Below, piece after piece: positions 955-5,462 of a stretch of 64,000 bases of DNA (its first letter is position 1; each line of letters starts with the position of its first letter). The DNA is taken from assembly GCA_965279525.1 (NCBI GenBank), contig CBDIIB010000004.1:704001-768000 (forward strand), given 5' to 3'. The notes under the pieces were generated by a model, which saw only the letters and a list, made by a program, of their open reading frames with translations, ran no database searches and was not told where the DNA came from. The translations under genes were made by a program, and so were the position numbers. The DNA comes from Tagaea sp. GTDB lineage: Bacteria; Pseudomonadota; Alphaproteobacteria; CACIAM-22H2.

Positions 955-3098
<2,144 letters not shown>

Positions 3099-3135
3099 CG
3101 AACCCGCAAGTCTGTCCCGAGATTTTTGCGGTCCT

Positions 3136-3192
3136 GTTGACGCCGAGTTGACGCCGAGTTGACATCGAGTTGACGCCGAGTTGACCGTCAAC
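3136..3192. repeat. 11-bp tandem repeat array GTTGAC(GC/AT)CGA x4, ending in the palindrome GTTGAC-C-GTCAAC
   Basis: Units at 3136, 3147, 3158 (GTTGACATCGA) and 3169; palindrome 3180-3192; further GTTGAC/GTCAAC at 3223-3234 and 3249-3254. Confidence 0.9.
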
Positions 3193-3283
3193 ACGCAACG
3201 CCTTGATCGCATTCGATACCCGGTTGACGTTGACAGGAATCAAGCGCCGTCAACCAAACCTTGCGGTCCTGCTTTTTTCAATC

Positions 3284-3303
3284 CTTCACGATGTCAAACA
3301 GCG
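3284..3303 (-). promoter_or_regulatory. boxA-like antitermination element (minus strand CGCTGTTTGACATCGTGAAG)
   Basis: GCTGTTTGACA resembles the boxA consensus GCTCTTTAACA; lies about 25 nt downstream of the predicted start of the 3334-3362 promoter. Confidence 0.45.
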
Positions 3304-3333
3304 CACGGCCGGATCGCTCCGACCGATCGCAGG

Positions 3334-3362
3334 ACTATAGGCTGTTGAAGGATTAAATACAA
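3334..3362 (-). promoter_or_regulatory. putative sigma70 promoter TTGTAT-N17-TATAGT
   Basis: Plus-strand ATACAA (3357-3362) and ACTATA (3334-3339) separated by exactly 17 nt in an AT-rich patch. Confidence 0.6.
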
Positions 3363-3390
3363 CCATAACTACAAATGTAACTGTCCAGAT

Positions 3391-4188
3391 TCACTGCACC
3401 GAAAGAGCCGGTACCCGCATGTTGAACGATGCGTTGTTGGCGATGGCCGTCGCGATCGAGATCACGATGGGGGACGGGAGGCTGCCGAGACCGGTGTAGT
3501 TGGCGAGCCTCACGTTCGCCACCGACGACCACGCCGACACGTCGGCATTCGCGAACTGCAGCATGTCGGCGAGGATCATTCCGTTGGGCGCCATGCGCAC
3601 GCCGACATTGTTGGCGACCGCCGTTGCGGCACTTTCCACCGTCGCGTTGACGACGGAATCCACGGTCGAGGCCGCCCGGACAATCGCCTTCTGAAGCGCA
3701 CCCTCGAGCACCAGCGAACCGAGGAACGCCGCGACCGACAGGTTCGAGTTGCCCGTCGGCGCGACCGACGGCCCCTGCCCATCGCCCGAGCCGCCGCCGG
3801 CCGCGAACTGGCCGATATGCAGCTGCAAGGCCGTGTCGGAATCAACGCCGAGATTGTTCGCGACTGCCGTGGCGGCACTGGTGACCGAACCCAGATCCGT
3901 CGCCGGGATCGTGATCCCGTCGATTCCGGCCGTGCCGCCCGGCGAAGCCTGGTTGTTCGTGATGTCGGTCACTTCGGTCGTCGCGACGACGTTGCCGAAA
4001 TGCACCTGCAGGGACTCCACCATCGTCATGTCGGTCGGGGCGATGTCGATGCGGATGTCGACGTTCTTCGTGACCGTCTCGACGATCGCGGCGTCCCACG
4101 ACCAGCTGACGCGGTCGAAGGCCAGGACGGGCGATGAGGTAGCAAGCGACAGGGCGGCCAGCAGGCCCGATTTCAAGATGGAAGACAT
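3391..4188 (-). CDS. secreted beta-repeat protein (ATAV(A/G)NN repeats), HfaA/HfaD-like putative surface or amyloid-like protein, paralog 1
   Basis: Sec signal peptide (SSPVLA|FD), no Cys, rich in A/V/T/S/N/G, three S-x-ATA(V/I)ANN motifs; AAGGAG RBS; paralogous to 4389-5387. The function is an inference. Confidence 0.6.
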   Translation of the reverse strand: MSSILKSGLLAALSLATSSPVLAFDRVSWSWDAAIVETVTKNVDIRIDIAPTDMTMVESLQVHFGNVVATTEVTDITNNQASPGGTAGIDGITIPATDLGSVTSAATAVANNLGVDSDTALQLHIGQFAAGGGSGDGQGPSVAPTGNSNLSVAAFLGSLVLEGALQKAIVRAASTVDSVVNATVESAATAVANNVGVRMAPNGMILADMLQFANADVSAWSSVANVRLANYTGLGSLPSPIVISIATAIANNASFNMRVPALSVQ

Positions 4189-4388: not shown

Positions 4389-5387
4389 TTACTGCGCTGA
4401 AACGACCGGCGCCTTCACGGAGATCGATGCGTTGTTGCCCACGGCCGTCGCGACCGAACCCACGATCGGACGGGTCAGGGAACCGAGGCCCGTGTAGTTG
4501 CTGAGCGTCACGTCCGTCACCTTCGAACGCGCCGTCACGTCGGCATAGGCGAACTGCGTCACGTCGCCGATGAGCAGCCCGTTGGGGCCCATCGTGACCG
4601 TGAGGTTGTTCGCGACTGCCGTTGCCGAGCTGTCGACCGTGGCGTTGACGATGTCGGCCACCGTCGAAGTCGCCCGGATTTCGGCCTTCGTGGCTCCACC
4701 GGTCGAAGCAAGCGTGGCGAGCACGGCTGCGATCGTCAGGTTGGAGTTGCCGGTCGAGACGGAAGGAACGCCGCCTTCGCTGCCCGAGAGACCGCCAACG
4801 GTGAACTGGCCGATGTGCAGCTGCAGGGCAGTGTCGGAGTCGATGCTGAGGTTGTTCGCGACTGCCGTTGCGGCACTCGAGACCGAGCCCAGTTCGGTGG
4901 CGGCGGCGAGAGACGCCGTCGCCGGGATGACGAACCCGCCCACGCCGATCGTGCCGACCACGGTGCCGTTGATGCCGTTGGGCGCGTCGTCGCTCTCGTT
5001 GACCGAGCCGAAGAGGATCTTCGGGCTCTTGAAGTCGTCGTCGAGGAACTCGCCGGGCGCACCGGCCACACCCAGCCCGTAATGGAACTGGAACGGAATG
5101 ACGACATCATCCGTCACGCCGCCGGGCGAAGGCTGGTTGTTCGTGATGCCGGTCACTTCGGACGTCGCCGTGACGTTGCCGATGTTGGCCTGCAGCGATT
5201 CCACCATCACCATCCCGGTCGGGCTGATGTCGATGTTGACGTTCACGTTCTTGACGATCGTTTCGGTGATGGTGGCATCCCAGGACCAGTCGACATTGTC
5301 GAACGCGAGTGCTGGTGACGCCAGGGCGAGCGTGACGGCGATCGCCGACGCACCGGCCAGAAGGCCTGCTTTCGTGATGCGAGACAT
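4389..5387 (-). CDS. secreted beta-repeat protein (ATAV(A/G)NN repeats), HfaA/HfaD-like putative surface or amyloid-like protein, paralog 2
   Basis: ATG 5387 after AAGGAG; signal peptide ASPALA|FD; motifs SAATAVANNLSI, SSATAVANNLTV, SVATAVGNNASI; no Cys. Confidence 0.6.
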   Translation of the reverse strand: MSRITKAGLLAGASAIAVTLALASPALAFDNVDWSWDATITETIVKNVNVNIDISPTGMVMVESLQANIGNVTATSEVTGITNNQPSPGGVTDDVVIPFQFHYGLGVAGAPGEFLDDDFKSPKILFGSVNESDDAPNGINGTVVGTIGVGGFVIPATASLAAATELGSVSSAATAVANNLSIDSDTALQLHIGQFTVGGLSGSEGGVPSVSTGNSNLTIAAVLATLASTGGATKAEIRATSTVADIVNATVDSSATAVANNLTVTMGPNGLLIGDVTQFAYADVTARSKVTDVTLSNYTGLGSLTRPIVGSVATAVGNNASISVKAPVVSAQ

Positions 5388-5462
5388 GGGCTTTCTCCTT
5401 GAACGGTTGAAGGCATCGTGCCCGGGCAGGCTGGATCGCACGCACGGGGTGGCTTTTATGCG

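Follow-up and report, generated by a model that had tools for sequence, protein, structure and literature searches.

Intergenic repeats of a mosaic, modular and palindromic kind are familiar from the 3' ends of genes, as in the BIME/REP and RIP/RIB elements of E. coli, the Correia elements of Neisseria and the RIME elements of Rhizobium. They vary in the number of their units and hold an IHF-like motif between the palindromes, and Correia elements carry promoters as well. The BOX elements of Streptococcus pneumoniae are dispersed in intergenic DNA and are composed of boxA-boxB(n)-boxC modules. Another kind of described system is the leader that is read by the Nus factors: boxA loads NusB:S10 and blocks Rho, and it is also found upstream of suhB and of CRISPR operons (PMC13753749, PMC5725501). 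The survey of boxA targets from 2017 says of itself that non-coding RNAs were left aside (PMC5725501). The element described here from Tagaea sp. appears, judged by its sequence, to combine these two kinds, namely the Nus/boxA leader in a non-rRNA setting and the mosaic intergenic repeat. A literature search on boxA/Nus, antitermination, repeats and Tagaea, covering titles and the beginnings of abstracts, returned no description of such a family.

The copy under study lies in a window of 64,000 nucleotides (the whole stretch of DNA that was analysed), where it occupies the entire 292 bp spacer from 3099 to 3390 in the gap between two convergent genes. On its one side hemB (porphobilinogen synthase, 2103–3098, plus strand; PF00490 ALAD, E 1.2e-133) ends with a stop codon at 3096–3098 and runs towards the cassette. 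On the other side an ORF of 265 aa (3391–4188, minus strand, taken from the ORF list) is co-directional with the cassette, its stop codon at 3391–3393 abuts the promoter module, and a Pfam search assigned it to no family. This ORF and a second one of 350 aa on the same strand (4389–5441) look like paralogues. Motifs such as GTTGTTGGCGAC..GCCGTCGC recur in the DNA close to the 3' end of each, both have signal-peptide-like starts, and neither has a Pfam match.

Read on the minus strand, the copy begins with an AT-rich module of the B1 promoter type (TTACATTTGTAGTTATGG, 3363–3380), which carries the family-invariant TAC-N4-GTA and could be either an UP-like element or the site of a regulator. The -35-like hexamer TTGTAT (3357–3362) and, 17 bp past it, the -10-like hexamer TATAGT (3334–3339) follow, with a start site predicted near 3326–3328. 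A leader hairpin (CGGTCG / AGCGATC... / CGGCCG, 3306–3325), boxB-like in its position, precedes the boxA (3284–3302, GCTGTTTGACATCGTGAAG), which is made up of the core GCTGTTTGACA (3302–3292) and the shared extension TCGTGAAG. Behind it stands a single GTTGAC-type repeat unit (3136–3266), which aligns with 53 other copies. It consists of the unit start CCGCAAGGTTTG (3266–3255), a GTTGAC hexamer (plus-strand positions 3249–3254), two GTCAAC past a loop (plus-strand positions 3223–3234), an IHF-like ATCAAGGCGTTG (3207–3196) within a stretch of about 30 nt before the palindrome, and the palindrome GTTGAC-G-GTCAAC itself (3192–3180) with four more GTCAAC at an 11-nt period. TRF reports this expanded run of half-sites as an 11-bp tandem array of GTTGACGCCGA with 4.5 copies and 89% matches (3136–3185), and GTTGAC/GTCAAC hexamers occur nine times in 3136–3254 against 26 times in the rest of the window (~63.9 kb). 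The remaining 3099–3135 on the minus strand is the remnant of a further unit of the GAGAC type, and the orthologue in the related genome G012 is more complete in GAGAC/GTCTC here. In the predicted fold the inverted repeat CCGCAA (3104–3109) / TTGCGG (3126–3131) is followed by the U-rich GUUCGUUAUUUCU across the hemB stop codon, and the two make up a weak terminator-like hairpin.

The initial annotation had described the promoter (TTGTAT-N17-TATAGT), a boxA-like stretch, the hexamers and the 11-bp array as lying on the minus strand and pointing at hemB with no terminator in between, and each of these parts was found where it had been placed. A generic promoter and terminator scan of 2900–3600 on both strands called 0 promoters and 0 terminators, the weak hairpin at 3104–3131 included. 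Rfam covariance models gave no match at E ≤ 1 between 2800 and 3700. As the -35 hexamer matches TTGACA in only 3 of 6 positions, the hexamers of this copy are not significant when taken alone. It is their recurrence that marks the features as non-random, since -35, 17-bp spacer, -10, hairpin and boxA follow one another in this way in all 48 copies that were aligned, which come from 10 genomes. Within the window copy a perfect complementarity of 9 nt was noticed between the boxA region (3289–3297, TTGACATCG) and the deviant third repeat of the array (3159–3167, CGATGTCAA); the G012 orthologue lacks it, and it was dismissed as probably due to chance. The TTGAC core of boxA is also complementary to every GTCAA half-site of the GTTGAC-type unit.

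The identity of the boxA follows from a comparison with the ribosomal RNA genes of the same genome. Its single assembled 16S gene has GCTCTTTGAAAAGTGAATACGG ahead of it, the 16S-23S spacer behind it contains GCTGTTTGACATGGTGAAGAGG, and the window sequence GCTGTTTGACATCGTGAAG matches the boxA of both the rrn leader (C5:1864185) and the spacer (C5:1866420), including the GTGAA extension that is common to all three. The boxA-like motif of the initial annotation, for which a comparison with the rrn leader had been proposed, is thus a true boxA of this organism. The wording is that of an alphaproteobacterial host (GCTSTTTGAMA), in contrast to the gammaproteobacterial GYTCTTTAANA, and the genome encodes both NusB and Rho. 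The 16S-23S spacer sequence from C5:1866.4 kb recurs at C2:1–130, the very start of that contig, so at least one more rRNA operon is split or collapsed in the five-contig assembly.

Outside the rRNA genes the pattern GCTSTTTGAMA..GTGAA occurs at 27 sites of this genome, and 30 of 31 relaxed boxA matches, rRNA sites included, are intergenic according to crude gene calls. One to three repeat units stand behind the boxA at every one of the 27 sites, and a leader hairpin is often part of the copy. At 19 of the sites the 85 nt ahead of boxA contain a promoter match of 8/12 or better, compared with 1.65% of 2000 random intergenic 85-mers used as control. At least three types of promoter module are present in this genome, B1 being that of the window copy. 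A second type combines a near-consensus TTGACA with a 17-bp spacer that holds a GGAAC-N2-3-GTTCC palindrome; the palindrome looks like an operator, which suggests that these cassettes could be regulated. Sites with this second type include C5:1471389, C5:1053625, C5:1745195 and C4:1016269. Further GTTGAC-type units have no recognisable boxA (C3:540557, C3:321439, C4:521728 and C5:483795) and are preceded in the same orientation by yet another promoter type (TTGCGA, 17 bp, TATATA). As these units still stand behind a promoter, the family is larger than its 27 boxA-bearing copies.

A BLAST search with the 292 bp found six further places in the own genome (E ≤ 4e-12), at which separate modules recur in different combinations. 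The initial annotation had proposed this search and had considered the remnant of a dispersed element as one possibility; the element is indeed dispersed, but the window copy is an intact member of the family and no remnant. Rfam models assigned 20 loci of the family to no RNA family and gave only one, spurious, match to a plant miRNA model. That match came from a repeat of another kind, which is palindromic, REP-like and unrelated (GGGAGAGGGTTAGGGTGAGGGG / CCCTCTCCCGC...); it often adjoins boxA cassettes and was seen at L002 and L003 (C4:1061.4 kb and C4:1110.5 kb) as well as at several loci of relatives.

The leader was described from an alignment of 48 distinct B1 modules, to which 10 genomes contributed. 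The upstream module is invariant in all 48 at columns T14 A15 C16 ... T22 A23, with the upstream TAC-N4-GTA and a TCC also invariant in this alignment. The -35 hexamer reads TTGTAT in 38, TTGCAT in six and TTGTAA in four copies, its TTG never changing, and the distance to the -10 hexamer is exactly 17 bp in 48/48. The latter starts with TA in all 48 copies and fits TAnnnT in 40, boxA begins 30–32 nt behind it, and G.GCT.TTTGA of boxA is again found in 48/48. Hexamers and spacing of the promoter proposed by the initial annotation are therefore conserved across these copies.

The leader hairpin with its six pairs was 94.8% paired in the alignment against 84.5% in shuffles, none of 500 shuffles reaching the observed value. 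Compensatory changes are evident at pair 70–90 (CG 27, GC 10, UA 9, UG 2) and pair 72–88 (GC 32, AU 8, GU 4, CG 1). G·U accounts for 33 of the 288 cells of the stem on the minus strand, and pairing drops to 86.8% when the opposite strand is read. We take covariation together with G·U pairs as the probable signature of an RNA made from the minus strand of the window. The whole predicted minus-strand RNA did not fold significantly better than its shuffles (z -1.43, equalled by 17 of 200), nor did the plus strand (z -0.44). A sister subfamily in genomes G003–G005 follows the same plan, with a hairpin before boxA that has compensatory changes in 7 of 19 predicted pairs, and a hairpin of variable sequence after boxA (mean z -1.5).

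In the alignment of 54 GTTGAC-type copies of the repeat unit, its start and the palindrome mostly lie 75–78 nt apart (68 nt in two copies), and 1–4 extra half-sites follow the palindrome in the other copies, the window copy and the one at C4:1016597 carrying most. Units with GTTAC, GAGAC or GTGAC as their hexamer have the same layout and occur both here and in closely related genomes, and in G003–G005 the layout exists with units of the GTCGC type, in which GTCGCG arrays of 11 bp with up to seven copies lie behind boxA. Such GTCGCG arrays were observed at L129, L131, L133, L142, L144, L190, L195, L196 and L200, in the position that the GTTGAC array has in the window copy. A genome-wide census of hexamer-n-hexamer palindromes with a third copy gave 12 for GTTGAC and 10 for GGTTAC, the only usable counts as it was otherwise swamped by GC-rich low-complexity matches. 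RNAalifold found no covariation in the GTTGAC-type unit and only six invariant pairs, a 6-bp stem whose invariance is imposed by the way in which the copies were selected. The X1 hairpin of the unit was likewise free of covariation, with 81.8% pairing against 81.4% in shuffles. The palindromes have a centre of 1 nt, which would suit recognition as double-stranded DNA better than an RNA hairpin, and from this and the missing covariation the unit may act in the form of double-stranded DNA or simply through its sequence motif.

Before the palindrome a conserved TCAA-N4-TTR is found at a fixed place, resembling an IHF site. Most units do not carry the full IHF consensus WATCAANNNNTTR (it occurs in 7/54 of the GTTGAC type and 10/20 of the GTAAC/GTCGC types), and its core ATCAA-N4-TTR in 21/54 and 10/20, respectively. 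Many GTAAC-type copies end in a stem that is followed by CTATTCTTTT, and some copies show partial terminal inverted repeats (CCGCAAAGTT...AACTTTGCGG). An 11-bp direct repeat around the window unit (TTGCGGTCCTG) was considered as a target-site duplication, but it shrinks to TTGCGG in G012.

Based on crude GC3-filtered ORF calls, 24 of the 27 boxA-bearing copies have a convergent gene ahead of them and 18 have a co-directional gene just upstream; two of the three exceptions to the first rule also face the end of an ORF when inspected by eye. There is no replication-strand bias among the 27 copies (13 co-oriented, 14 opposite). In a count of the extended boxA motif across 50 genomes we obtained 25 in the own genome (G000), 8–32 each in 14 of the 20 other genomes of the genus, 0–1 in the remaining six and 0–5 in 29 genomes from 14 other genera, and the reversed pattern used as control was found in none of the 50. 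BLAST with the window region gave matches in 11/20 genomes of the genus and in 0/20 outside it. When 185,579 species were scanned for a palindrome with half-sites, 88 stretches fitted; among the 80 matches listed the full unit layout is seen in 46, and all of these 46 come from records named Tagaea sp., 'Rhodospirillales bacterium' or 'uncultured Azospirillum sp.' MAG, the other listed matches being scattered singletons. The family is thus confined, in these searches, to one clade of Tagaea-like bacteria. Among the GTTGAC-type units of relatives in the matches listed, 38 of 46 have a boxA core in the same orientation no more than 400 nt upstream, and due to this linkage leader and units can be regarded as one entity.

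Copies often occupy orthologous sites, and these sites differ in what they contain. Relatives hold 69 elements whose downstream flank matches G000, and 40 of these lie within 900 nt of one of the 27 sites. After hemB a unit is directly present in 7 of the 19 relatives with a hemB match, with boxA visible in four of the seven within the 520 nt read past the stop codon. The type of this unit is GTTGAC in G012, G013, G011 and G019, GTTAC in G010 and G014 and GAGAC in G007, and no unit follows hemB in G017 or in 11 more distant species. At another site shared by five species promoter and boxA are kept in all, the first unit is present in three and absent in two, the array has 2–5 copies, and the boundaries of presence and absence coincide with repeated unit starts. 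A third site carries different promoter types in G019 and G011 and none in G000, where two convergent genes are 9 nt apart without the element, which is therefore not required there. These patterns suggest that the units have spread and been reshuffled between intergenic sites at 3' ends at the DNA level. With a MITE (a non-autonomous DNA transposon) in mind, no autonomous partner and no consistent target duplication were found for the element. The Y1/RAYT transposase family PF01797, present in 6 of 14 reference genomes used as control, had 0 matches in G000, which is 97% complete. Mobilisation by RAYT as for REP/BIME was rejected on this ground, and mobility of the ssDNA/HUH type on the same ground and for the lack of strand bias.

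Compared with the described systems, the cassette agrees with the antitermination region of rrn leaders and spacers in the order of AT-rich upstream element, sigma70 promoter, small hairpin and boxA, and also in the boxA core with its GTGAA extension. It differs from them as no rRNA follows, as it exists in 27 dispersed copies with repeat units and as it is usually aimed at a convergent 3' end. With the suhB 5' UTR and the CRISPR leaders of gammaproteobacteria it shares a boxA early in a (here predicted) non-rRNA transcript, and with the CRISPR case also the position of boxA before an untranslated repeat array (PMC5725501, PMC13753749). A CRISPR array with a boxA leader was rejected: the repeats of the cassette have a period of 10–11 nt (11 bp in the window array) and no spacers, in contrast to CRISPR repeats of about 24–48 nt with unique spacers. 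No cas context was seen, and the family is multi-copy. The mosaic palindromic repeats, the varying number of units and perhaps the IHF-like motif are shared with BIME/REP, RIP/RIB, Correia and RIME elements, but the cassette is oriented, has a conserved promoter and an rrn-type boxA, varies in its hexamer and is not accompanied by a RAYT gene. The pneumococcal BOX elements are similar in their fixed order of modules with a middle or terminal module of variable number. Their sequences are unrelated, they lack a promoter-hairpin-boxA leader, and their 'boxA' shares only the name with the Nus boxA.

Taking these results together, we consider it probable that the cassette is a gene for a Nus-modified untranslated RNA, carried on a lineage-specific mosaic repeat and not specific for hemB. 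RNA polymerase would start near 3327 on the minus strand, and the nascent boxA would recruit NusB-S10, which together with NusA, NusG and SuhB would allow the polymerase to withstand Rho. Transcription through the repeat unit would then yield an untranslated RNA of at least about 230 nt, ending at the weak hairpin over the hemB stop codon or running antisense into the 3' end of hemB. Several results speak against this. The generic scan called no promoter in the window copy, whose -35 hexamer is a poor match, the repeat unit, which makes up the larger part of the element, lacks RNA covariation and has palindromes with a 1-nt centre, and the fold of the whole predicted RNA is not significant. 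Modules are also swapped or absent at orthologous sites as expected from a selfish mosaic repeat, and promoter and boxA might serve the spread of the element instead of the host. The corresponding explanation, which we hold to be rather unlikely, is a mosaic repeat acting at the DNA level like BIME/RIP, Correia or RIME, with promoter and boxA as passengers. Its working parts would be the palindromes, the half-sites phased at 10–11 bp and the IHF-like site, bound by proteins at gene 3' ends with a possible role in nucleoid or supercoil handling, in roadblocking or in purely selfish spread. The perfect palindromes with their 1-nt centre and direct half-sites at helical period would fit such a function, as would the missing RNA covariation of the unit, the conserved TCAA-N4-TTR at its fixed place, the partial terminal inverted repeats and the variation of copy number, unit type and presence at orthologous sites. 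However, a hexamer that changes between GTTGAC, GTTAC, GAGAC, GTGAC and GTCGC fits one binding protein poorly, only the smaller part of the units carries the full IHF consensus, and neither an encoded Y1/RAYT transposase nor a strand bias (13 vs 14) was found. Moreover, conservation is highest, and covariation is seen, in the promoter, the hairpin and boxA, and these parts are linked to the unit in 38/46 cases.

Two further explanations concern the position of the element between convergent genes. The initial annotation had considered an antisense RNA to hemB, and a locus-specific regulator acting by convergent transcription or by pairing with the hemB 3' end would agree with the direction of the cassette, with the lack of a canonical terminator in the scan and with the units directly after hemB in 7/19 relatives (four of the seven with a visible boxA). 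This appears improbable to us. Cassettes of this design are directed at about 24 other, unrelated genes of the genome, the unit found behind hemB is of different types in different species, and G017 and the 11 distant species have none there. The overlap of the element with the hemB coding sequence also stops at the stop codon; a device dedicated to hemB is not what the family looks like. Similarly improbable in our estimate is a passive bidirectional terminator or insulator with non-functional look-alikes of promoter and boxA. The 3'-3' gaps in 24/27 cases, the richness in palindromes and the stem followed by CTATTCTTTT in many GTAAC-type copies would be in line with it, but the scan found no terminator on either strand of the window copy, and look-alikes would keep neither TTG, TA, boxA core and spacing invariant through 48 copies nor the covariation of the hairpin.

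A wider interpretation, which we put forward tentatively and regard as doubtful at present, is that this clade uses rRNA antitermination outside rRNA, with about 25–30 regulated promoter-boxA genes per genome that would give Rho-proof untranslated RNAs at convergent 3' ends. Such RNAs could regulate the convergent genes as antisense RNAs or by collision, and they could also jointly be a decoy for NusB-S10 that ties the flanked genes to ribosome synthesis; the 10–11-nt arrays of the CCGUCAAC type would then be the effector part that binds a protein. If the copies should not be transcribed, they still represent a new and well-delimited family of mosaic intergenic repeats, which annotators should mask or label. 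If they are transcribed, the Nus complex of these bacteria would serve many targets besides the ribosomal ones, Rho-proof antisense or convergent transcription could be studied in a natural system, and the family would be a mosaic repeat by which an entire transcription unit is dispersed, where a hairpin alone might have been expected.
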